64,000 bases of DNA from an uncultured Thermoanaerobaculia bacterium (GTDB lineage: Bacteria > Acidobacteriota > Thermoanaerobaculia > Thermoanaerobaculales > Sulfomarinibacteraceae). Where the stretch lies: positions 738-64,737 of the forward strand of contig CAYRFI010000010.1 of NCBI GenBank assembly GCA_964423595.1. Reading direction: 5' to 3'. The first letter of the stretch is position 1, and the number at the start of each line of letters is the position of its first letter. Under the pieces are notes generated by a model. It did not search any database, had not been told where the DNA came from, and saw nothing but the letters and a program-made list of their open reading frames with translations. Shown here in pieces: positions 1,516 to 49,728 of the stretch. The position numbers and the translations under genes were made by a program.

Positions 1516-4206
1516 GTGACCGAAGGCAACAATAGCGGCCGGCAGCGAACCGCGGGTTCACCACCCGATGCCCCGACCGATTTGATCGGCTCCAGCTTCG
1601 GCCAATACCGAATCAAGGAGCTGCTTGGGGCCGGTGGGATGGGCGAGGTCTGGCGGGCCGAGGACACCCGCCTCGGTCGCGACGTGGCGCTCAAGATGCT
1701 GCCCGAGCAGGTCGCGGAGGACGCCGACCGGATGGCGCGCTTCAACCGTGAAGCCAAGGTTTTGGCGAGCCTTAACCATCCAAACATCGCGGTCCTGTAC
1801 GGACTCGAGCACATGCAGCGATCTGCACCGTCCGACCCGACGGACGCCGCTGCCGTCGGCGAGGGGGACGCGCGACCGGTCCACGTCCTGGTCATGGAAC
1901 TGATCGAGGGGGAGTGCCTCGACGAGCTCGTCGCGCGGGGAGCATTGCGTTTCGACGATGCGATGGCGATCGCCCTGCAGGTCGCCGAGGGGCTGCAAGC
2001 GGCCCACGAGTGCGGCATCGTCCACCGCGACCTCAAGCCCGCCAATATCAAGGTCCGCCCCGACGGCACGGTCAAGATCCTTGACTTCGGCCTCGCCACG
2101 ACCCGCACAAAGGAAAGTGCGGACGACAGCCAGTCGCAGTCCCCGACCATGACCCAGCGCCACACGGCGCTGGGGACGATCCTCGGCACCGTCGCCTACA
2201 TGAGCCCCGAGCAGGCCCGCGGCAGGCCGGTGGACCAGCGCGCCGACATCTGGGCGTTCGGCTGTCTTCTGTACGAGCTGCTCACGGCCGTCAAGGCATT
2301 CCGGGGAGAAACCTCGTCGGACATCATGGCCGCGGTACTCAAGGATGAGCCGGAGTGGGGCAAGCTGCCGGCTGACCTCGAACCGGTGGCTGTCCATGTG
2401 TTGCGCCGTTGCCTGACCAAGGACCCGGCGCGGCGTTTTCACCATGTCGCCGACGTGCGCATCGAGCTGGAGGAGGCGATGGCCGCGGCCGTACCGCGTC
2501 GCAAGGCGCGGCGCCGGAGGCCGGCGGCATCGTGGCTGTGGTTGATCGGGGCGACAGCTGCTGCGGTCACCACGATTGCCGTCGCGACGAGCATCCGGTC
2601 GCCTGAGACGTCGCTGCCAACCTTCCACGCGCTGAGCTTCCGTAGCGGCCGGATCGCGAGCGCTCGTTTCGCCCCGGACGGGACGACCGTGGTTTTCGGA
2701 GCGTCCACCCGGGATCGGCCGTTGGCACTGCTGTCGACGAGGACGGACAGTATCGAGTCGAGACCACTGGAACTCCCGCCGGCGGACATTCTCGGCATCT
2801 CCCGCAACGGTCACATGGCGGTGCTCCTCGACCGTCACAACGAGGGGTCGTGGGTCAGCGTCGGCACCCTGGCCGCCGCTGATCTCGCTGGAGGCGCTCC
2901 CCGCCCAATTATCGAGCGCGTAAACGACGGCGACATCTCCGACGACGGGAACCAGATGGCAGTTGCCCGTGAGGTCGGCCAAACACAGCGCCTGGAGTAT
3001 CCATTGGGACATGTGCTCTTCGAGACCCACGGCTGGATCAGCCACGTGCGCATCGCGCCCGACGGAGAACGGGTTGCCTTCCTGCACCACCCCGTCTACG
3101 GGGATGATCGTGGGCTCGTGGCCATGGTGGACGCCGACGGCACGCTTTCCGAGCTCACCGAGGAGCTGTCCGATAGTCTGCAGGGCCTCGCTTGGTCCCC
3201 GGACGGGGGCTCGATCTGGTTCTCGGCCTTCGTGTTCGGCGAGGGCGGGGTGCTCTGGAGCGTGCGCCCCGGTGCCAAGCGGGTGGAGCGGCTGCGCTCG
3301 CCCATCAGCATCCGCCTGCAGGACATTGCCACGGACGGCCGGGCGCTGATCGTCGCCGGTGATACACGAGCCGAGATCGCAGGGCTCCTCGCCGGCCAGA
3401 CCGAAGAGCGACGATATGAGGGCTGGAACGATGACTCCATCGGCGGCCTGGACGCCGACGGCACAATCTTCGCAGGCAACATGCAGGTGGCGACCGTCGA
3501 CGGCGAGTACGCGGCCTTCACGAGGCGCGCCGACGGATCGCCGCCTGTCAGGCTGGGGTACGGGGACGTGTTCGGCATGAGTCCGGACGGGAGGTGGGTG
3601 TTCACACGGAAGATGACCGGCGACAAGGGCAGGCTGACCCTGCTCCCCACCGGACCGGGCGAGCCGCGGGTCATCGAACTGGGAGGCGGCGTCCGCCCCG
3701 ACGATTCGGGGTCGGCCATGCTCACCTGCGCGCTGGACAGGCGGCGCGCGGCGTTCTTGGGCTTCGTTGATGGAGACGGACCACGGATCTTTGTGATTGA
3801 CCTGGACGACGGGACGTTGACGCCGGTCGGCCCCATTGGGACCAATGAGGCTGTCATCTCCCCGGACGGCTCGCGGGTGGCCGCGTTCGCGCCGGACGGG
3901 GTCGTCACCATCTATCCGGTTACGGAGGGCACACCGCTGACGGTGCCGGAAGTCGGCCCCGGCGAGCAGCCGGTCCAGTGGACCCGGGATGGACGCTCCC
4001 TCCTGGTGTGGGACCGCGCCTTTCCGGCACGTATTTACCGCGTCGGCATCGACGATGGCTCGCGTACGCTGGAACTCGAGATCATGCCGACGGACCCTGC
4101 CGGGGTTCTCTACGGCCAGCTCCTCCTGACCCCCGGCGGCGACCACTACGTGTACCGCTACCGCCGTGATTCCAGTACTCTCTTCCTGGTAGAGGGCATT
4201 CGCTGA
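1516..4206 (+). CDS. Ser/Thr protein kinase with transmembrane helix and C-terminal TolB/PD40-like beta-propeller
   Basis: GTG start follows a G-rich purine run. Hanks kinase motifs are present: GAGGMGEVW, VALK, HRDLKPANI, DFGLA, SPEQ. TM segment WLWLIGATAAAVTTIAVATSI. About 540 aa of tail carry repeated (A/S)PDG blade motifs. Confidence 0.9.
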   Translation: MTEGNNSGRQRTAGSPPDAPTDLIGSSFGQYRIKELLGAGGMGEVWRAEDTRLGRDVALKMLPEQVAEDADRMARFNREAKVLASLNHPNIAVLYGLEHMQRSAPSDPTDAAAVGEGDARPVHVLVMELIEGECLDELVARGALRFDDAMAIALQVAEGLQAAHECGIVHRDLKPANIKVRPDGTVKILDFGLATTRTKESADDSQSQSPTMTQRHTALGTILGTVAYMSPEQARGRPVDQRADIWAFGCLLYELLTAVKAFRGETSSDIMAAVLKDEPEWGKLPADLEPVAVHVLRRCLTKDPARRFHHVADVRIELEEAMAAAVPRRKARRRRPAASWLWLIGATAAAVTTIAVATSIRSPETSLPTFHALSFRSGRIASARFAPDGTTVVFGASTRDRPLALLSTRTDSIESRPLELPPADILGISRNGHMAVLLDRHNEGSWVSVGTLAAADLAGGAPRPIIERVNDGDISDDGNQMAVAREVGQTQRLEYPLGHVLFETHGWISHVRIAPDGERVAFLHHPVYGDDRGLVAMVDADGTLSELTEELSDSLQGLAWSPDGGSIWFSAFVFGEGGVLWSVRPGAKRVERLRSPISIRLQDIATDGRALIVAGDTRAEIAGLLAGQTEERRYEGWNDDSIGGLDADGTIFAGNMQVATVDGEYAAFTRRADGSPPVRLGYGDVFGMSPDGRWVFTRKMTGDKGRLTLLPTGPGEPRVIELGGGVRPDDSGSAMLTCALDRRRAAFLGFVDGDGPRIFVIDLDDGTLTPVGPIGTNEAVISPDGSRVAAFAPDGVVTIYPVTEGTPLTVPEVGPGEQPVQWTRDGRSLLVWDRAFPARIYRVGIDDGSRTLELEIMPTDPAGVLYGQLLLTPGGDHYVYRYRRDSSTLFLVEGIR

Positions 4207-4238
4207 ATCATTCGTGTCGGCGCCAGGCACCTTTACCC

Positions 4239-4420
4239 TAACCCGCATATCTCACCAACTTCCTGCTGTGGGCGCCGATGCACCGCACCCAGCGGTGTTT
4301 TCTCGCCTCGGGGTGCTCCACGTACTGTTGAGTACGAGTCCGCGCCCCTCAGGTCGCAAACCCCACTGGGCACGGCACCTCGTCGCCCTCGCGATGAAAC
4401 CCGGTGAGATATGCGGGCTA
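4239..4420 (+). repeat. foldback intergenic repeat, complete copy A (182 bp, MITE-like)
   Basis: Ends are TAACCCGCATATCTCACC ... GGTGAGATATGCGGGCTA (18-nt inverted termini, 1 mismatch). The arms stay complementary down to the tip hairpin CGTACT-GTTG-AGTACG (4321-4336). Lies between convergent genes. Confidence 0.9.
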
Positions 4421-4461
4421 ATGGCGCCGCTTCTCCTGGCGCCGCGCGCGAACGGTCTGTG

Positions 4462-5370
4462 TCAGCGGAGACTCAGGAGGTACTCGGAGATCGCCCGGAG
4501 GTCGTCCTCCGGGAGCTGGGCCAGGTTCATCTGGATCTTGGCCATGCCACCGCTCGAGAGCTTGTCGTAGCCGAGCGTCTCGCCGAATCGCAGCGCGAGC
4601 GTGAGATCCGCGACATCGGCATACCGCCCCCGGCCGACCAGGTCCCGAAGACTCGGGACGTGCCCCTCACCGCTCGGGTGCGGTCCGCCTTCCAGCGGGC
4701 GAGTGTTGTCGAGAATCATGAAGGCGTTGCGGGGGGTGTGGCACTCGCCGCAGTGACCCGGTCCCTGCACCAGGTACGCGCCGCGGTTCCATGCCGCGTC
4801 CCGGGCCGGGTCGGGCTCGAACGTCCGCGCCCGGAATGCGAAGCGTTTCCAAAGTCCCATGGCGCGCCTCGCGAGCCAGACCATGGGCACGTCGGCGTCG
4901 CGCTGCGAGGACCGCACCGGCGGGAAGCTCATGAGGTAGGCGCGAAGGTCGAGCAGATCTTCGATACGCATGTTGCGGTACGAGGTATAGGGAAATGCCG
5001 GAAAGTAGTGACGGTGACCCGGCGAGACGCCTTCGGTCATCGCGTCGACGAACTCCTCCGCCGTCCAGCGACCGAGTCCGGTGTCGGGGTCAGGGGTGAG
5101 ATCCCCCGGATAAATCGTCCCGAACGGCGTCGAAAAAGGCGCTCCGCCGGTCGGAAGTCCCGGGTTATCCGTCCCGGAAGGGGGGTTGTGACACGCCATA
5201 CACCCCCCGGCATGAAACAACACCTCGCCGTTGGCCAGGTCTGGGGTGTGCGTCGGCAGGGCCCGACCGCTCGGACGGGCCGCGGTCAGGACGAAGAAAA
5301 CCACGGCGACGAGCACCGCACAGAGCGCCGAAGCCGCCGCGATCCACCTCGCGCGAGACGGGTGCCTCAC
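4462..5370 (-). CDS. dihaem c-type cytochrome
   Basis: Two CxxCH motifs (CMACH, CGECH). N-terminal signal/TM AAASALCAVLVAVVFFVLTAA. The GTG start overlaps the upstream gene's stop (GTGA), suggesting translational coupling. Confidence 0.85.
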   Translation of the reverse strand: MRHPSRARWIAAASALCAVLVAVVFFVLTAARPSGRALPTHTPDLANGEVLFHAGGCMACHNPPSGTDNPGLPTGGAPFSTPFGTIYPGDLTPDPDTGLGRWTAEEFVDAMTEGVSPGHRHYFPAFPYTSYRNMRIEDLLDLRAYLMSFPPVRSSQRDADVPMVWLARRAMGLWKRFAFRARTFEPDPARDAAWNRGAYLVQGPGHCGECHTPRNAFMILDNTRPLEGGPHPSGEGHVPSLRDLVGRGRYADVADLTLALRFGETLGYDKLSSGGMAKIQMNLAQLPEDDLRAISEYLLSLR

Positions 5371-9508: not shown

Positions 9509-9542
9509 GACCGAAAGAGTGTAACGTTTCGCATCCTGGCTC

Positions 9543-9625
9543 TAGCCTGCATATCTCACCAACTATCTGCTGCGGCTAGAAATCTGGAGGTGCGCGTGTG
9601 CACCGGCCAGGGATGAATTTCCCAA
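9543..9625 (+). repeat. foldback repeat, left-arm fragment B (AGCCTGCATATC subfamily)
   Basis: TAGCCTGCATATCTCACCAACTATCTGCTGCGG... matches the left terminus/arm of copies A, C and G. Similarity decays after about 80 nt, and no matching right terminus was found. Confidence 0.7.
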
Positions 9626-11717: not shown

Positions 11718-11856
11718 CTAACCCAGCCTGCATATCTCACCAACTATTTGCTGCGACCGGAAATCTGCAGCAATCTGCGGCGTTTGCTTCCATCGGAGTG
11801 CTCGACGTACTGCAAGTACGCGCTCCGCGCCCTGCGAGGCTTGGCCGGGGCCCCCA
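11718..11856 (+). repeat. foldback repeat, truncated long-form left arm C
   Basis: CTAACCCAGCCTGCATATCTCACCAACTATTTGCTGCG... then GTGCTCGACGTACTGCAAGTACGCGCTCCGCGCCCTGCGAGGCTTGGCCGGGGCCCCCAG, nearly identical to 30551-30611 of copy G. No right arm. Confidence 0.85.
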
Positions 11857-11889
11857 GATCAGCCCTTGGGAGCGGACGCATCACGCAGT

Positions 11890-15506: not shown

Positions 15507-17747
15507 ATGTCCCGGCATCCGGAGGTGCTCAGATTGACCCAGGAGGCCAGATGGACAGGAATCCAACTCGTGGACCGGGCGCCTGTACACCTCTATACTG
15601 TTGCGGTTGTGGATCCAGACAACAACCCCGTGCGGAAGGACGAGTTCTATCTCGGCGACTGGTTGATCCAGCCGAGTCTCGACCGGGTGACTCGGGGTCA
15701 CCGGACCCACACCGTTCCACCTCGTTTCATGGATCTTCTGGTTTGTCTCGCCGAGCAGCGGGGAGCCGTGGTCTCCAAGAGCCAGATTGTCGACAAGGTT
15801 TGGGCCGGCGATGTTGTGACCGACGGGGCCCTCACCCATGCGGTAGCGGTTCTTCGGCAGACGCTCGATGACGATGCCCGCGAACCGCGATACATCGAGA
15901 CGATTCCGAGGAGAGGATACCGCGTGATCGCCACCGTCCGGTCAGCCGACGAACCGCCCGAAGCGGACCCGGGGGAAGTGGCCGCGACGCACGGATGGCG
16001 CGTCCGCATCGCGCTGGTAGCGATCACGGCCGCTCTCGTGACATCGGCGGTCTGGTTCGTGTCAGTGAGAGACCGAGGAACTGCGCAACCGGTCGCAGAT
16101 GCGCCGATCCCGTCAATTATCGTTCTTCCCTTCAAAAACCTCGGTCCACCGGACCAAGAGTACTTCGCCGCCGGGATCACCGAAGAGCTGACCACCCGTC
16201 TGGCAGCGGTACGAGGCCTGACCGTCGTTTCGCAGACCAGTGCGTCGCGATACGCGAATACCGATTCAACCGTGGCCGAGATCGGAGAGGAGCTCGGGGT
16301 CGATTATCTCCTCGAGGGAAGCGTGCGGTGGGCATCGGGAGAGGATGCGGGGGAGAAAGTACGGATCACTCTCCAGCTCATCCGGGTGGAAAACGATCGA
16401 CATATTTGGGCAGAGGTCTACGATCGTGTTCTCGAAGACATCTTCACGCTGCAGTCCGAAATCGCCCAGCAGGTGGTCGAACGACTCAACGTTGAGCTGG
16501 TGGAAGCGGAGCAGCTCGCCCTCCAAGTCAGGCCCACCGCCAGTATCGAGGCGTACCAGGCCTATCTGCACGGCAGAGACTACGCCACCAGAAGAGATAC
16601 CGAACAGGACACGCTGCTCGCCGTAACGATGTTTCAGCGCGCCGTTGACCTCGATCCACAATTCGCTCTCGCCTACGCCGAGCTCGCTCAGGCGCACGCC
16701 CGCATCTACCACTTCGGTTTCGATCGCTCGGACCAGCGGTTGAGGGCTGCGCGGGAAGCTCTGGAAACCGCCCTCGAGCTCGATCCGATGTCGCCGGAGG
16801 TGCGTCTCGCCGCTGGGTACTACCACTACTGGGCCGAAATGAACTTCGAGGCAGCTTTGGAGGACTTTGCGGTTGCCGAAAAGGGACGGCCTTACGACGC
16901 CGAGGTGCTCGAAGGTGTGTCGTACATTCTTCGTCGGCAGGGGAAGCTCGAGGAGGCCCTCGCGAAGATCGAGCGAGCGTATGAGATTAGCCCTCGGGAC
17001 GCACTGATCGCGCTGGAGGTCGGGAATACGCTCCGTGGCCTCCGGCGGTACGACGAGGCCAACCGGCTTTTCGATGACGCGATCATCCTGTCCCCGGACC
17101 TGATGACAGCCTATCTGTGGAAAGCTGAGAATTATTGGCTGTGGAACGGTATGGTCAGCGATGCCGCGCAGACTTTACAAAACATGCCGAGGGTGCCGGT
17201 TTCGTATATGTTCGAGGGTCTGTACCTGCAGCAGATCTACGAGGAGGACTATGCCGGCGCATTCGCTCTGCTCTCCGAAACGGCCCTCGATGCGCACGTC
17301 ACCCAGGAGCGGTACTACCCGAAAGCTCTGCTCGAAGCAGAGGTGCATGCATTCGTGGGAGAGACCGATCAAGCTCGCGAATCATACGAGAAGGCCCGGG
17401 TCGTCCTCGAGAGGCTGGTTGCGGAACAGAAGGATGATGCGCGGTTCCACAGCTCTCTCGGCCTCGCCTATGCGGGGCTCGGTTTGAAGGCGGATGCAGT
17501 CCGGGAGGGACGATTCGCGACCGAGCTCTACCCCGTTTCGATGGACAGCTGGTCGGGAACCGATTTTCGTCGCGAGCTGGCGCGGATCTATGTCATGGTT
17601 GGCGAAAATAATCTGGCTCTCGACGAAATCGAGTTTCTGCTGGCCACTCCGAACCGATGGACATCGGTCGCACTGTTCCGTCTCGATCCGAGGTGGAATG
17701 CTCTCCGAGACAACCCGCGGTTCGAACGGCTCCTGAACGAGCGATAG
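15507..17747 (+). CDS. winged-helix (OmpR/CadC-type) DNA-binding protein with TM segment and C-terminal TPR domain
   Basis: wHTH ends with the typical YIETIPRRGYR. TM segment IALVAITAALVTSAVWFV. A TolB-N-like segment (IIVLPFKNLG) is followed by many TPR-like helices. Start uncertain (ATG 15507 vs TTG 15495). Confidence 0.85.
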   Translation: MSRHPEVLRLTQEARWTGIQLVDRAPVHLYTVAVVDPDNNPVRKDEFYLGDWLIQPSLDRVTRGHRTHTVPPRFMDLLVCLAEQRGAVVSKSQIVDKVWAGDVVTDGALTHAVAVLRQTLDDDAREPRYIETIPRRGYRVIATVRSADEPPEADPGEVAATHGWRVRIALVAITAALVTSAVWFVSVRDRGTAQPVADAPIPSIIVLPFKNLGPPDQEYFAAGITEELTTRLAAVRGLTVVSQTSASRYANTDSTVAEIGEELGVDYLLEGSVRWASGEDAGEKVRITLQLIRVENDRHIWAEVYDRVLEDIFTLQSEIAQQVVERLNVELVEAEQLALQVRPTASIEAYQAYLHGRDYATRRDTEQDTLLAVTMFQRAVDLDPQFALAYAELAQAHARIYHFGFDRSDQRLRAAREALETALELDPMSPEVRLAAGYYHYWAEMNFEAALEDFAVAEKGRPYDAEVLEGVSYILRRQGKLEEALAKIERAYEISPRDALIALEVGNTLRGLRRYDEANRLFDDAIILSPDLMTAYLWKAENYWLWNGMVSDAAQTLQNMPRVPVSYMFEGLYLQQIYEEDYAGAFALLSETALDAHVTQERYYPKALLEAEVHAFVGETDQARESYEKARVVLERLVAEQKDDARFHSSLGLAYAGLGLKADAVREGRFATELYPVSMDSWSGTDFRRELARIYVMVGENNLALDEIEFLLATPNRWTSVALFRLDPRWNALRDNPRFERLLNER

Positions 17748-17784
17748 CCGCCTGCGCGACGAAACCTGGTGAGACATGCGGGTG
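17746..17784 (+). repeat. foldback repeat, right-terminus fragment D
   Basis: GCGCGACGAAACCTGGTGAGACATGCGGGTGA matches the right arm/terminus of A and G (CTCGCGA[CT]GAAACCCGGTGAGATATGCGGGCTA). It starts at the stop codon of the upstream gene. Confidence 0.75.
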
Positions 17785-27619: not shown

Positions 27620-29209
27620 ATGGTCCAGACGCGGAGAATGGCTGCGGGTCTGATCGTCATCGTGCTGAGCTTCGCTCAGGCCGGCCTGACTCAGTCCACT
27701 CAAGGGGTGGCGAGGCGGGAGGTCAAAAAGCCGTTTGACGTGGTCGAGGCTTCGATTGCGGACATCCACGAGGCCATGCGCGAGGGAAGGCTGACGTCGC
27801 GACAGCTGGTGCAGCTCTATATCGACCGAATCGAGGCCTACGACAAGCAGGGGCCCGCCCTCAATGCCATCATCGTGGTCAACCCCAATGCCCTCAGGCG
27901 CGCGCAGGAACTCGATGAGGTCTTTGCCGAGACCGGGATGGTCGGGCCGTTGCATGGCATTCCGGTCATCGTCAAGGACAACTACGACACGGCCGATCTG
28001 CCCACAAGCGGAGGTTCCCTCTCTCTTCGGGAATCGACACCGCCGGACGACGCTTTCCAGGTACGCAAACTCCGCGAGGCAGGCGCCATCGTGCTCGCCA
28101 AGGCCAACATGGCCGAGTTTGCGTTTTCCCCGTATGAAACTGTGGGTTCTGCGCTGCCCGGACACACCCGAAACCCGTATGCCCTCAACCGGGTCCCGGC
28201 CGGCTCGAGTGGTGGAACCGCGGCTGCGGTCGCGGCGAGCTTCGGCACCGTGGGCCTCGGCACCGATACCGGCAACTCGATTCGGGGCCCCTCCTCTCAC
28301 ACCGCGCTGGTCGGGATTCGATCGACTATGGGGCTGACGAGCCGCGACGGCATCATCCCGCTTTATCTCGACCATGACATTGGAGGACCGATCGCTCGCA
28401 CGGTGGCCGATGGAGTGGCCGTTTTTGACGTCATCGTTGGTTTTGACGAAACGGATCCAGTCACCGCCGACAGCGTCGACCACCGGGCGACAAGCTACCT
28501 TGGGTATCTCGACATCAACGCGCTGCGCGGGGCGCGGCTCGGCGTGATGCGTCAGTGGTCGAACCGTGAAGGTGCTGACGCCGAGGTCCTCGAGCGATTC
28601 GACGAAGCTCTGAAAGATCTCGAACGGGCCGGAGCCGTCCTTGTCGACCCGGCGACGATTCCCGAAATGGACGCCCTTCGAGAGGACGGCCTCTGGTGCC
28701 CGCGCTTCAAATGGGATCTCAACCACTACCTGAAGAGCCTCGGCCCAAATGCGCCCTATTCGAGTCTCGAAGAGATCCTTGCCTCGGGCCAGTTCCATCC
28801 GCATATCCGCCCACGAATGGAGTACGCGCAGGCGGTCGAAGATCCTCCGGGCAGCAACCCGGCCTGCCTGCGCTCGCTTGAAAACCGTGAGCTGCTGCGC
28901 CGGGCGGTTCAACACCAGCTTGATGCGAACCGCCTCGACGCCATGATCTTCCCCACCTGGAGCAATCCGCCACGTCTCATCGGCGATCTCAATACGCCCC
29001 ACGGTGACAACAGCCAGGACCTGTCTCCCGGTACTGGGTTCCCGGCGATAACGGTTCCGATGGGCTTCGTTCGGGGGAGCCTGCCGGTCGGTCTGCAGTT
29101 CTTCGGCGACGCCTGGTCCGAGCCGCGTCTCATCGCCCTCGCTTACGCCTACGAGCAGGCCATCCATCATCGCCGGCCGCCGATGACAACGCCACCGCTC
29201 GGCCACTGA
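27620..29209 (+). CDS. amidase (amidase-signature family), secreted
   Basis: ATG follows GGGAGGG. Signal peptide. AS-family Gly/Ser-rich signature GGSSGG-like (PAGSSGGTAAAVAA) and GTDTGNSIR. Confidence 0.9.
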   Translation: MVQTRRMAAGLIVIVLSFAQAGLTQSTQGVARREVKKPFDVVEASIADIHEAMREGRLTSRQLVQLYIDRIEAYDKQGPALNAIIVVNPNALRRAQELDEVFAETGMVGPLHGIPVIVKDNYDTADLPTSGGSLSLRESTPPDDAFQVRKLREAGAIVLAKANMAEFAFSPYETVGSALPGHTRNPYALNRVPAGSSGGTAAAVAASFGTVGLGTDTGNSIRGPSSHTALVGIRSTMGLTSRDGIIPLYLDHDIGGPIARTVADGVAVFDVIVGFDETDPVTADSVDHRATSYLGYLDINALRGARLGVMRQWSNREGADAEVLERFDEALKDLERAGAVLVDPATIPEMDALREDGLWCPRFKWDLNHYLKSLGPNAPYSSLEEILASGQFHPHIRPRMEYAQAVEDPPGSNPACLRSLENRELLRRAVQHQLDANRLDAMIFPTWSNPPRLIGDLNTPHGDNSQDLSPGTGFPAITVPMGFVRGSLPVGLQFFGDAWSEPRLIALAYAYEQAIHHRRPPMTTPPLGH

Positions 29210-29374
29210 CCCGCACACCTCACCAGGTTTCGTCGCGAGGGCGGTGAGGCACCGTGCCCGGTGGGGTTCCCGACCTGAGGGGACAGTTACGTGGAGCACT
29301 CCGAGGCGAGAAGACACCGCCGGGTGCGGTGCATCGGCGCCCGCGGCAAAAAAGCTGGTGAGATCTGCGGGCTA
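29207..29374 (-). repeat. foldback intergenic repeat, complete copy E (168 bp, inverted relative to A, tip hairpin absent)
   Basis: The reverse complement aligns end to end with copy A, apart from the missing ~18-nt tip. Termini are TGACCCGCACACCTCACC ... GGTGAGATCTGCGGGCTA. It fills the whole gap between two convergent genes. Confidence 0.9.
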
Positions 29375-30367
29375 GCACCGACACCAGCGTGCGGCGCGTT
29401 GGAAGAGCTCCGTCGGCCGTCGCGAGGAGGTCCAGGTGCCGGTCAGCGGTCCGTTGCCGGGAGGGCCGGGGAAGCCTTGAACTGCGAGTCGATGGGCGTC
29501 GAGCCACAGGCGCTGCGACTCGTCGTCGGGATCGTAGGGGCGCGTGCCGCCGCCGGAAAGGGGATCGCCGAGGATCGGCAGGCCCGCGTGGGCGAGCTGG
29601 ACGCGAATCTGATGCTTGCGGCCGGTGAACGGGCGAACTCGGACGAGGACAAGACCATCTTCGACCGCCATCACCTGGACCTCACAGCGCGAGTTGGCCG
29701 GCAGCCCCGGCCGTACCTCCTGACGCCAGTACTTGTTCGGGCTGCGGGCGATGTGATGGGCGAGAGTAAAGCGCGGCGGTGGCGGATCCCGCCGCAGCTC
29801 GCAGACCGCCGTGTAATCCTTCTCGACCATCGAACACGGCTGGAAGAGGCGCGCGAAGTGCGAGCGCGTTGCCGGGTCGAGGGACAGCAGCAACACCCCC
29901 GACGTCAACCGGTCGAGGCGGTGAAGCGGCGCGATACGGTCATTGCCGGTGGCTTCGAGGAGAAGGTGAAGGAGACAGTGGCGAACCCAGCGCCCGCCGG
30001 GTGTGACCGGGAGGTTGGGTGGCTTGTCCACCACCATCAGGTGCCGATCCGACCACACCACCCGGATGTCCGTGCGCACCGGCGGCTCCCGCTCGACTTC
30101 ACGCCGGTAGTGCACCTCGAGAAGCGGTTGGTAGGGCGTCCAGGCATCGATCACCGAGTCGGTCGTCCACACCTTGCCGGCCGCGAAGCGTTCCACCCAG
30201 GTCGCGCGTGGGATCCTCGGGAAACGGCGGAGAAAGAAATCGAAGATCGTCTGCACCTCCCGCGGTGGCCGCTCGGGCAGCTTGACGGTGGAGGCGCGGG
30301 TCGCCGGCGCCTCCGGGGTTCTCCCCACAAGGGCCTCGCTCGGATGGGGATCGCCGTCATCTGCCAT
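29372..30367 (-). CDS. RluA-family pseudouridine synthase
   Basis: Catalytic motif HRLDRLTSGVLLL. Start placed at ATG 30367 (MADDGDP...); the track's 30445 start runs into a repeat terminus. The stop TAG is the terminal CTA of repeat copy E. Confidence 0.85.
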   Translation of the reverse strand: MADDGDPHPSEALVGRTPEAPATRASTVKLPERPPREVQTIFDFFLRRFPRIPRATWVERFAAGKVWTTDSVIDAWTPYQPLLEVHYRREVEREPPVRTDIRVVWSDRHLMVVDKPPNLPVTPGGRWVRHCLLHLLLEATGNDRIAPLHRLDRLTSGVLLLSLDPATRSHFARLFQPCSMVEKDYTAVCELRRDPPPPRFTLAHHIARSPNKYWRQEVRPGLPANSRCEVQVMAVEDGLVLVRVRPFTGRKHQIRVQLAHAGLPILGDPLSGGGTRPYDPDDESQRLWLDAHRLAVQGFPGPPGNGPLTGTWTSSRRPTELFQRAARWCRC

Positions 30368-30426
30368 GTCACCAACATAGCATCCGCCACCAGAGCCGCC
30401 TACGTGCTGGAGCCGCAGGTCCGCAG

Positions 30427-30453
30427 TCGACACCCGGTGAGACATGCGGGTTA
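30427..30453 (+). repeat. foldback repeat, solo right terminus F
   Basis: TCGACACCCGGTGAGACATGCGGGTTA. It lies 25 nt before the left terminus of copy G. Confidence 0.7.
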
Positions 30454-30478
30454 ATATGGCGGCGGCACGATGAAACCA

Positions 30479-31031
30479 AGCCCGCGTATCTCACCAACTT
30501 TCTGCTGCGGACGCCGATGCACCGCACCCAGCGGTGTTTTCTCGCGTCGGGGTGCTCGACGTACTTCAAGTACGCGCTCCGCGCCCTGCGAGGCTTGGCC
30601 GGGGCCCCCAGCGTCGTCCGTTGCGTGCGCCATGGTTCCGAATTCGAGGCGCCGCGACGACGGCGATGTCCTTCCATCGCCGAGGAGCGGCAACGAAGAA
30701 GACGGGCCATGCCGCCGACAACCCGGCGTTGGAAGCGAGAGGTGGCCGTTGCCGGCAATCGCCGGCGTACGGCTACTCGAGTCCGGGGTCGGGCCACAAG
30801 CCGCGGAGCGGCGCCGTAACCCTTCGGGCCGATGGGGGTCGTGGCCGATCTCTGCGTTGCTTGTCGTCGACGATGCACGGGCATCGACTTCCTCCTTGCG
30901 CCTTGATCTCGGCTCACGAGCCCCATCGGCGGACGGCACTGGGGAACCCGACCAAGCCTCTGGGTCGAAAACCTCACTGGGCACGGCACCTCGCCGCCCT
31001 CGCGACGAAACCCGGTGAGATATGCGGGCTA
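30479..31031 (+). repeat. foldback intergenic repeat, long form G (553 bp)
   Basis: Same termini (AGCCCGCGTATCTCACC ... GGTGAGATATGCGGGCTA) and the same outer arms as copy A. About 390 bp of additional internal sequence is itself an imperfect inverted repeat (for example GGCTTGGCCGGGGCCCCCAGCGTCGTCCG vs the reverse complement of CGGACGGCACTGGGGAACCCGACCAAGCC), centred near TTGCCGGCAA (~30750). Confidence 0.9.
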
Positions 31032-32128
31032 GCAGCGGCGTTGTCGGCACGATCGAGAATCTTCTCGAGAAGGCTCGAATCCCTGGATGCTCGCTCGCGG
31101 TGATCGGCCGAGACGGCCGGCTGTGGTCGCACGGCTTTGGAATCGCGGATGTCGTGAGCAAGCGTCCGACGAACGAGTCGACCGTATACCACCTGTTTTC
31201 AGGCACCAAGCTCTTTACGGCCACGGCGATCCTGCAGCTCGTCGAGGGTGGTCAGCTCGACCTCGGCACTGCGGTCACAGACTATCTGCCCCACCTGCCG
31301 CTGGCGCGCGATATCACCCTTCGCGCCCTGCTGAGCCACGCGTCGGGTCTGAGGGAAACGCTGGGAGGTTTTTTGGCCGTGTACTTCCCAGGTGAAGAAC
31401 CGCCGACCACCGAGCAGGCGCTGGCGGGCTACGATCTCCGATCGCGGGGGTCGGCGAGCGGAAAGGCCCAATACCGCAACGTCAATTACGCAATCCTCGG
31501 TGAGGTTGTCAGTCGGGTGTCCGGAATCCCGTATCGGACGTTCGTACGGCGGCGGATCCTCACGCCCTTGTCGAGCGACGCCGACTTCGACGTGTCGGAT
31601 TTCAAGCAGGATAATCTGGCAACTGGATACATGGCGCGCTGGGATCCGACGCGCGCTCTGCTTCGCTTCCTCGATCCGTTGACCTCGCGGCGCATCTACC
31701 GGGGGTGGACCAAGAACGGATTGGTGGCTCTGGAACACTACAACCTGGTGACCTCGGCGATCGGCGGTCTCGTTGGTTCCGTCTTCTCTTTTGCTCCCTT
31801 TGTCCAGTCCCAGCTGAGCGATGGGAGCCCCCTTCTCTCCCCGGAGACCATGCAGCGCATGCAGGCGTTGGTCGCCACGGGCAGGGCCGGTATCGAGTCA
31901 AGAGTCGGGGTCGGGCTCGGATGGAAGATTGGTCTGGTCGGCGATTGCCGATTCCTGAACCACGAGGGCGGTGGTGCGGGCTTCACGAGCGAGCTGCGGC
32001 TCTACCCGGACGAAGGCCTCGGAATGGTCGTGCTGATGAACAGGTCGTCGATGTCGGGCACGATGCGTGTCGCCCACAAGATTTGTGAAACGATCCGTGG
32101 AAACCGAGAGTCGTTTACTGGACGTTAG
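31022..32128 (+). CDS. serine hydrolase (beta-lactamase/PBP4*-like, class C fold)
   Basis: S-x-x-K motif FSGTKLF, Y-x-N (YRNVNY), and IPGCSLAVIGRDG near the N-terminus. The only in-frame ATG upstream of the conserved N-terminus lies inside the repeat terminus GGTGAGATATGCGGGCTA. Confidence 0.8.
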   Translation: MRASSGVVGTIENLLEKARIPGCSLAVIGRDGRLWSHGFGIADVVSKRPTNESTVYHLFSGTKLFTATAILQLVEGGQLDLGTAVTDYLPHLPLARDITLRALLSHASGLRETLGGFLAVYFPGEEPPTTEQALAGYDLRSRGSASGKAQYRNVNYAILGEVVSRVSGIPYRTFVRRRILTPLSSDADFDVSDFKQDNLATGYMARWDPTRALLRFLDPLTSRRIYRGWTKNGLVALEHYNLVTSAIGGLVGSVFSFAPFVQSQLSDGSPLLSPETMQRMQALVATGRAGIESRVGVGLGWKIGLVGDCRFLNHEGGGAGFTSELRLYPDEGLGMVVLMNRSSMSGTMRVAHKICETIRGNRESFTGR

Positions 32129-49563: not shown

Positions 49564-49670
49564 ACTACCCGGGGTCTGTCGGTCCAACAACGGCTGGACC
49601 GCACGCTGGCTGAGCGCACGAAGATGTAGGTGTCGAGAACGCCGGCGAGGTCAGAAGGACAGTAACGATC

Positions 49671-49728
49671 AAACACCGCTGGGTGCGGCGCATCGTCGGC
49701 CGCAGTAGAGACCTGATGAATAATGCAG
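49671..49728 (-). repeat. foldback repeat, degenerate left-arm fragment I
   Basis: AAACACCGCTGGGTGCGGCGCATCG matches the reverse complement of A 4277-4301 at 24 of 25 positions. Downstream, ...CTGATGAATAATGCAG is a decayed terminus (cf. TTGGTGAGATATGCGGG). Confidence 0.6.

Follow-up and report, generated by a model that had tools for sequence, protein, structure and literature searches.

Insertion sequences (ISs) of the IS1380 family, among them IS1380, IS1247, and ISEcp1, appear in ISfinder descriptions as elements of ~1.65-1.7 kb with ~15-bp inverted repeats that start with CC and a 4-5-bp target duplication. For IS1247, a length of 1672 bp, an inverted repeat (IR) of 16/13, and a direct repeat (DR) of 5 are listed (PMC3281130). 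Bacterial miniature inverted-repeat transposable elements (MITEs), including the Correia elements of Neisseria, ERIC/IRU, RUP, and Nezha, have been reviewed (PMC3184786), and that review already covers repeats that donate a ribosome-binding site (RBS) together with an ATG, such as Neisseria REP2, as well as in-frame fusions of repeats to genes. It also cites Ogata et al. 2000 for Rickettsia palindromic elements (RPEs), which, like some other repeats, are inserted in frame within coding sequences. Here we compare with these systems a 548-bp element, named copy G (30481-31028, plus strand), which lies in a 64,000-nt stretch of contig CAYRFI010000010.1 from an uncultured Thermoanaerobaculia bacterium of the Sulfomarinibacteraceae; this whole stretch is called the window below. 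It is highly probable that G is a long variant of a non-autonomous MITE, presumably mobilized by IS1380-family transposases, which was inserted in codons 3-4 of a serine hydrolase gene and whose terminal-repeat ATG restarts that gene.

The preliminary description of this locus placed an element of 553 bp at 30479-31031. The element is present, but the target duplications set its boundaries at 30481-31028, with the flanks CAAG (30477-30480) and CTAG (31029-31032), of which the left differs by 1 base from the right, CTAG being the commonest flank in the family. The left terminal inverted repeat, CCCGCGTATCTCACC, occupies 30481-30495 and the right one, GGTGAGATATGCGGG, 31014-31028, both given on the plus strand; the right repeat holds a TGA (31016-31018), a Shine-Dalgarno-like GGTGA, and an ATG (31022-31024). 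The terminal arms at 30479-30502 and 31007-31030 form a 24-nt inverted repeat with 83% complementarity. As had been noted, G and the short copy A (4242-4417, plus strand, 176 bp, with a perfect CTAA/CTAA duplication) have both ends in common: blastn and alignment give 89.7% over ~108 nt on the left (G 3-108 in the 553-nt numbering) and 94.2% over ~69 nt on the right (G 485-553). Terminal repeats, 4-bp flanks, the ends held in common with copy A, and an empty site at the orthologous locus L122 all define the element.

The gene affected encodes a serine hydrolase of 368 aa (31022-32128, plus strand; Pfam Beta-lactamase PF00144, E = 2.8e-53). Its ATG at 31022 lies inside the right terminal repeat, as first reported. 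The closest homologue, P0002 (86% protein identity), begins MNPGSGVAGTIE, and the window hydrolase begins MRASSGVVGTIE. The P0002 locus, L122, has no element and the same downstream 1105-aa BNR/sortilin-like gene; its uninterrupted sequence, GGCACGATGAATCCAGGCAGCGGCGTC, reads GGCACG-ATG-AAT-CCA-GGC-AGC-GGC-GTC, whereas G is flanked in the window by GGCACG-ATG-AAA-CCAAG on the left and CTAG-CAGCGGCGTT on the right. When 552 bp, that is, the 548-bp element and one 4-bp flank, are removed from the window, the alignment with L122 is gapless and ATG-AAA-CCA-AGC... with the N-terminus MKPSSGVVGTIE is restored, which locates the element in codons 3-4 of the hydrolase. The 552 bp added by the insertion amount to exactly 184 codons. 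From the ancestral ATG (30470), an open reading frame (ORF) of 182 codons now runs through G in the hydrolase frame (30470-31018, plus strand) and ends at the TGA at 31016-31018; a single codon, GAT, follows before ATG 31022 in the same frame, and the N-terminus reads MRASSG... in place of the ancestral MKPSSG.... Twenty hydrolase homologues align from the same first column, which is also that of the window start, with the ancestral ATG cut off upstream. The next in-frame start is a GTG whose use would remove conserved residues, as had been pointed out, but it lies at 31100 rather than at ~31094. In locus L123, a second assembly in which the 182-codon ORF has been called as a protein, no Pfam match is on record for it. 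For annotation, the 182-aa ORF called across G is spurious and the hydrolase start is transposon-derived.

The element belongs to a widespread family. A genome scan with the terminal 17-mer, using one genome per species, yielded at least 118 loci in Gammaproteobacteria (including cultured Thioalkalivibrio), Thermoanaerobaculia, other Acidobacteriota, Gemmatimonadota, Myxococcales, Hydrogenedentota, and others. Pairing of the termini gave about 65-73 small elements with size clusters at ~163, 180, 210, 244, 260, and 290 nt, and a 15-nt terminal inverted repeat with the consensus CCCGCATATCTCACC is common to 73 paired elements. The target duplication is a 4-bp YTAR, mostly CTAG; the 4-bp flanks are identical in 39 of 73 pairs and one base apart in 22 of 73, and are made up of CTAG (32-34), TTAG (10), TTAA (6-8), and CTAA (4-5). 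Copies are dispersed in both orientations. Small size, absence of a transposase gene, inverted repeats, target duplication, multiple copies, an empty site, and termini shared with ISs are all found for G, which at the level of sequence would be classed as a bacterial MITE on every count. REP/REPIN sequences, which are palindromic units of ~20-40 nt that lack a target duplication and are associated with a Y1 (RAYT) transposase, were ruled out as an assignment by the target duplication and the termini of a DDE-type IS, without a search for a RAYT gene. Short-read contigs often end inside the repeat: L124 and L125 do so at position 1, and many loci, for example L012, L014, L018, L045, L057, and L075, have a terminus ~25-110 nt from a contig end. 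The repeat therefore frequently breaks metagenome-assembled genome (MAG) assemblies, and its copy number is understated by draft genomes. In a long-read gammaproteobacterial MAG (L015, 1230-7227), a 2,267-bp unit stands in tandem with terminal-repeat matches at 2677, 4944, and 7211; two ORF copies in it (1230-2678 and 3443-4945) both terminate at the left end of a MITE. The second of them (~500 aa) matches Pfam AAA_22/AAA_16, and the two are separated by a helix-turn-helix-like ORF.

Longer copies that encode a transposase, which the preliminary description had envisaged, were found in the form of IS1380-family elements, but these have only the terminal repeats in common with G. Six full-length IS1380-family ISs in five taxa show the same termini and CTAG flanks. 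The one at L099 is 1.67 kb long, has these ends between CTAG flanks, and contains a 484-codon ORF that matches Pfam DDE_Tnp_1_4 (E = 2.7e-154), the corresponding database protein being P0123 (460 aa). Three plasmid elements of 1,637-1,657 bp, from Pseudomonas putida pKF715A, Bradyrhizobium, and Rhizobium leguminosarum, carry transposases annotated as IS1380-family by the Prokaryotic Genome Annotation Pipeline (PGAP), the ends CCCGCAT(T/A)T(C/T)TCAC, and CTAG on both sides, and the chromosome of Steroidobacter denitrificans has two IS copies with the same ends and CTAG flanks. The terminal repeats of the ISs themselves likewise contain the outward ATG (GAGAAATGCGGG). When G was compared with four full-length ISs and the transposase by blastn and tblastn, only the terminal 14-17 nt matched, and tblastn of the IS1380 transposase found no transposase remnant in G (best E = 4.9). 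With only ~15 terminal nucleotides in common and without a transposase remnant, G is to be placed in a family of MITEs that agree with IS1380-family elements in their termini and target; lacking similarity to IS internal sequence, it did not arise by deletion from any of the ISs examined. An assignment of G as an IS1380 member or deletion derivative was rejected on the same grounds, no DDE_Tnp_1_4 gene, remnant, or IS-internal sequence being found in it. From the common termini and target, we infer that the family is probably mobilized in trans by DDE transposases of the IS1380 family. A full-text search found no literature on IS1380-related MITEs or on the CTAG target, which is weak evidence of novelty.

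Within the family, 19 elements of 176-181 nt from Acidobacteriota, Gammaproteobacteria, Gemmatimonadota, and deltaproteobacterial MAGs align colinearly and define a ~180-nt core. Its consensus forms one irregular hairpin consisting of the terminal-repeat stem, three internal helices, and an apical CGTACT...AGTACG hairpin. Compensatory changes occur in 27 of 39 pairs, compared to 15.0 +/- 1.7 in shuffles, none of 500 of which reaches 27, and 90.4% of the alignment cells are paired against 77.8% in shuffles; sliding the partners by 1-3 columns reduces pairing to 30-48%. The core sequences are related, so that these figures overstate independence, but the signal is still strong. In addition, mismatches on the aligned strand are G-T in 44 cases and A-C in 26 (p = 0.04), a weak hint of strand specificity.

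Compared to this core, G contains an additional, imperfectly palindromic insertion of ~371 nt (30587-30957, plus strand), which is specific to its lineage. The extra internal sequence had been described as an inverted repeat of ~390 bp; its palindromic nature is borne out by a match of the interior (G 112-482) to its own reverse complement, with 63% identity over 382 columns (E = 8.5e-26), whereas its length is to be corrected to ~371 nt. The conserved CGTACT...AGTACG hairpin (30552-30586, plus strand), corresponding to covariation helix 5 with GC in 9 and CG in 8 sequences at pair 92-99, is the apex in short copies including A, and G and copy C have it as a side branch, as had been observed, but in copy E it is only partly rather than wholly deleted. 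Folded as RNA, the 553-nt element reaches -324.5 kcal/mol, compared to -254.5 +/- 6.9 kcal/mol for shuffles (z = -10.2; 0/100 shuffles equal it), and copy A gives z = -7.0. Self-complementarity is therefore far above that of shuffled controls, but the hairpin of ~270 nt per arm suggested at first is not continuous in the predicted fold, which is multibranched. Four terminator-like sites near the centre of the palindrome are weak and symmetric and were given no weight.

The G-type interior is found in G, in copy C (11727-11861, plus strand), which comprises the left arm and the first ~25 nt of the interior before it is truncated, and, with 84% identity, in L039, the last 183 nt of contig JACXWA010000029.1 from Ca. 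Sulfomarinibacter kjeldsenii, which makes up a small subfamily. No other copy of it was detected by nhmmer across the 118 loci, and a metagenome scan for the interior motif GAGGCTTGGYCGGGNNCCCCAG gave two unrelated chance matches in a collection that does not hold the source contig. The interior could have originated as a nested foreign palindrome or by stepwise growth of a palindrome. The former would mean that a second, unrelated mobile or palindromic element became nested in a short MITE and that the composite then spread, which differs from the reading given at the outset only in the origin of the ~371 nt. The interior has inverted ends of its own, 31 nt each and 84% complementary (30590-30620 and 30930-30960), and it folds by itself as DNA with z = -5.2; copy C has the same left junction, hence the composite was copied as a unit. 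However, there is no target duplication at the interior ends (CTGC and TGGG), and no free-standing interior was found in the window, in the 118 loci, or among the matches of the metagenome scan. Nesting of a second element is thus possible, but somewhat unlikely.

The proposal that the hydrolase now starts in the terminal repeat is based on the reading frame and on the homologues. The hydrolase retains all 76 columns that are invariant among the 20 homologues, and we infer that the ATG at 31022 may serve as its working start codon. A GGTGA stands 3 nt before this ATG and may act as a ribosome-binding site; it is complementary to UCACC of the usual 16S 3′ tail. Comparable arrangements were reconstructed at three other loci. 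In radA of the cultured Thioalkalivibrio denitrificans ALJD (L070, 6955-7218), the ancestral GTG-G[CTAG]A-ACA... now reads MRARTQFTCSACG (MRARTQFTC), and in the alignment with the RadA model, residue 2 falls on profile position 3. An OppF/DppF-like ATPase (L074, ~4320-4595) has changed from VPPRPEPLV... to MRAKPEPLV..., and a CCG-domain protein (L105, 57-243) from MDPRGPIPV... to MRAEGPIPV.... In each of these, the element probably lies in codons 2-4, with the terminal-repeat ATG replacing the start.

Several observations weigh against the interpretation of G as an IS1380-mobilized MITE that restarts the gene. Its target duplication is imperfect (CAAG/CTAG). The window contains no transposase gene, and tblastn found one only at L099 among the window and the 118 loci; moreover, no transposase could be tied to the source lineage, the named ones among at least 8,000 close relatives being proteobacterial. 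Only one complete long copy is available, so that the polarity of insertion versus deletion rests on parsimony, and the covariation in the core need not stem from selection on a folded strand, since processes at the DNA level that keep the two arms similar could also account for it. ORFs spanning G are chance open frames as expected at 68% G+C; three of its six frames lack a stop, and the open 182-codon frame is therefore not special. A promoter scan found no sigma-70-like promoter in 30200-31300, and ATG 31022 is buried in a 17-bp repeat-repeat stem of the predicted fold. Furthermore, among ORFs of at least 200 codons at 202 termini, 32 start from the repeat ATG compared to 25 in the +1 frame. 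This excess is not significant, and the case for start donation is accordingly built on individual reconstructions and not on statistics.

The lack of a promoter-like site, the buried ATG, and the absence of an overall enrichment of ORFs from the repeat ATG would also fit a different outcome, in which the insertion, by placing 552 bp of strongly folding sequence between the gene and its old start, inactivated the hydrolase, leaving the downstream ORF as a recent pseudogene with a fortuitous repeat ATG. Against such inactivation, the 368-codon ORF is intact with every homologue-invariant column kept, several assemblies contain the same hydrolase protein, the gene restarts in frame with one codon between the stop of the upstream ORF and the new ATG, and the same layout recurs at radA and other genes elsewhere. 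A pseudogene therefore appears unlikely, and continued use of the gene from the repeat ATG is preferred.

In the preliminary description, the short copies were regarded as nested deletion derivatives of a G-like master. Such a master would be consistent with the presence in G of all the short-copy sequence, with a GCC(C)T microhomology at both junctions that would permit deletion, with real deletion derivatives in the family, and with the occurrence of the G-type interior in copy C and, in another species, in L039. However, the ~180-nt form keeps its length and its colinearity from phylum to phylum, and in the closest subfamily (A, L059, L071, L095, and L024, from Sulfomarinibacteraceae and other Thermoanaerobaculia) every short copy has one and the same junction, CGCGCCC-CTCGGG-TCGAAAACC, at which ~371 nt separate CGCGCCC from CTCTGGG in G, just 3′ of the apex hairpin. 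Other long variants bear unrelated insertions at other sites, namely +79 nt in the left arm of L070, +91 nt in the left arm of L108, and +111 nt in place of the apex hairpin in L113. In addition, the interior is dissimilar to IS1380 internal sequence and absent from the 118 loci of related and unrelated genomes as well as from the metagenome collection scanned, which lacks the source contig. Lineages that never carried the interior but have the ~180-nt form with this junction, which would speak against a master, are for the most part already observed. The very short forms (47-108 nt) and copy E are deletion derivatives of the ~180-nt core and not of G. It would be more economical to take the ~180-nt core as ancestral and G as a lineage-specific expansion, the reverse polarity needing more events; the deletion scenario is not supported by the comparison, and a G-like master is improbable.

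Alternatively, G might not be a transposon but the gene of a large, structured non-coding RNA, or a riboregulator in the 5′ untranslated region of the hydrolase. The very low folding energy, the covariation in the core, and the somewhat higher number of G-T than of A-C mismatches on one strand could all be accommodated by a functional RNA. Rfam 15, however, gave no match in the window at gathering score and only chance-level hits at E ≤ 1. The sub-threshold MIR1437 match of a short copy (4236-4423, minus strand), with 33.6 bits against a cut-off of 168, is taken as a generic likeness of long hairpins and not as homology; an assignment to a described structured RNA family was rejected. G bears the marks of a mobile element, with terminal repeats, a duplicated target, an empty site that lies within a coding sequence, and copies scattered in either orientation, and the interior is not conserved at the 118 loci. 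An RNA gene in place of a MITE is thus very improbable. That the long palindrome is an assembly artefact is scarcely credible: repeats do break assemblies, and the Logan contigs L124 and L125 begin inside the right terminal repeat, but the other assembly, L123, carries an identical 548-bp element with 99.98% identity over 5,050 bp, and the flanks of G fit the orthologous empty site to the base.

If the MITE does donate a start codon, the arrangement of the old and new starts may have mechanistic consequences. The old ATG (30470) lies 11 nt before the repeat-repeat stem. It might be speculated that ribosomes starting there would open the stem that hides ATG 31022, and that they would then stop one codon before this ATG and reinitiate, which would amount to translational coupling. 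One can go further and envisage a selected, portable translation-start module (GGTGA, 3 nt, ATG-CGG-G, and the CTAG target) that is combined with the covarying, ATG-hiding hairpin into a transposon-borne coupling cassette, in which the core would be a functional structured nucleic acid and not just a transposase substrate. With such a module, the element may persist even after landing in the first codons of a gene, upstream translation or transcription opening the stem. The hydrolase, radA, the OppF-like ATPase, and the CCG-domain protein are consistent with a cassette of this kind, which we nevertheless consider doubtful. If start donation is functional, elements of this family could sit in the 5′ ends of genes without destroying them, which would affect views of insertion tolerance and of gene-start evolution in MAG-rich lineages.

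The window contains further traces of the family. The terminal motif occurs eight times with up to 3 mismatches, compared to 0.00 expected from shuffles, and nhmmer with the family profile recovers A, E (inverted), C (truncated), and G together with four terminal remnants. These are a left-end remnant of 30 nt with CTAG on both sides (9546-9575, plus strand), a right-end remnant (17745-17782, plus strand), a left-arm remnant (49659-49728, minus strand), and a truncated terminal fragment of a second element (30419-30450, minus strand) that is flanked by TTAA at 30451-30454. The first of these, within 9542-9579 (CCTGCATATCTCACCAACTATCTGCTGCGG) and bracketed by CTAG, could be an excision or deletion footprint. 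The fragment next to G had been noticed as a solo terminus and is real; it matches the left-type end in reverse better (nhmmer E = 0.0018 vs 0.12), so that its arrangement with G is head-to-head, and the head-to-tail order first assumed is probably wrong.

Several gene boundaries in the window coincide with repeat copies. Copy E (29210-29371, minus strand, 162 bp, with the apex hairpin partly deleted and the flanks CTGA and CTAG) makes up, with these flanks (29206-29375), exactly the interval that separates two convergent genes. Its left flank CTGA overlaps the stop of an amidase gene (TGA, 29207-29209), and its right flank CTAG that of a pseudouridine synthase (TAG, minus strand, 29372-29374); the palindromic CTAG present before insertion probably carried both stops, the left copy having since changed from TAG to TGA, which is still a stop. 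At its other end, the longest ORF of this RluA-type pseudouridine synthase begins at an ATG (30443-30445, minus strand) inside the fragment 30419-30450. Its first 26 residues look non-native, and the true start may be Met27 (MADDGDPHPSE..., ATG 30367-30365); gene callers began the protein at the ATG within the fragment, which gives 357 aa in L123. Compared to L122 (556-700), synteny is kept downstream of the hydrolase and broken ~20 nt upstream of the old ATG (~30419-30456), where L122 has another minus-strand gene (555-1), which from its start resembles an amino-acid permease, and the window has the pseudouridine synthase. The position of the break at the fragment suggests a rearrangement with one end in a MITE copy.

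Collectively, G is a known kind of element and not a new system; what makes it attractive is the covarying core that crosses phyla, the palindromic expansion to 548 bp, and a start-codon replacement that could be reconstructed to the base. The comparison connects IS1380-type transposases and a CTAG target with an abundant MITE superfamily that spans phyla, and it provides reconstructible cases in which a terminal repeat has replaced the start codon of a gene.

With the bacterial MITEs described so far, the G family has in common that its members are small, non-coding, present in multiple copies, bounded by terminal inverted repeats and a target duplication, and able to form hairpins; empty and filled sites between relatives, length variants, and fusions with neighbouring ORFs are also found in both. 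It differs in that its termini and CTAG duplication match IS1380-family ISs, in that a single ~180-nt core with compensatory pair changes extends across phyla, and in that G reaches 548 bp by a palindromic expansion of ~371 nt. In the case of the IS1380 family itself, the 14-15 terminal nucleotides CCCGCAT(A/T)TCTCAC and the CTAG duplication are common to both, whereas G has neither a transposase gene nor a remnant and no similarity past the terminal ~15 nt, making it a passenger of the family. As in Neisseria REP2, a dispersed repeat supplies the translation start of a downstream gene; in contrast to REP2, the ATG of G belongs to a transposon terminal repeat, no promoter was identified in G, and the insertion in codons 3-4 could be reconstructed via an empty site. 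G resembles RPEs as a palindromic repeat within an ORF whose length is a multiple of three, but, unlike theirs, its insert is not translated into the mature protein, since a stop lies in the terminal repeat and the gene restarts one codon later.

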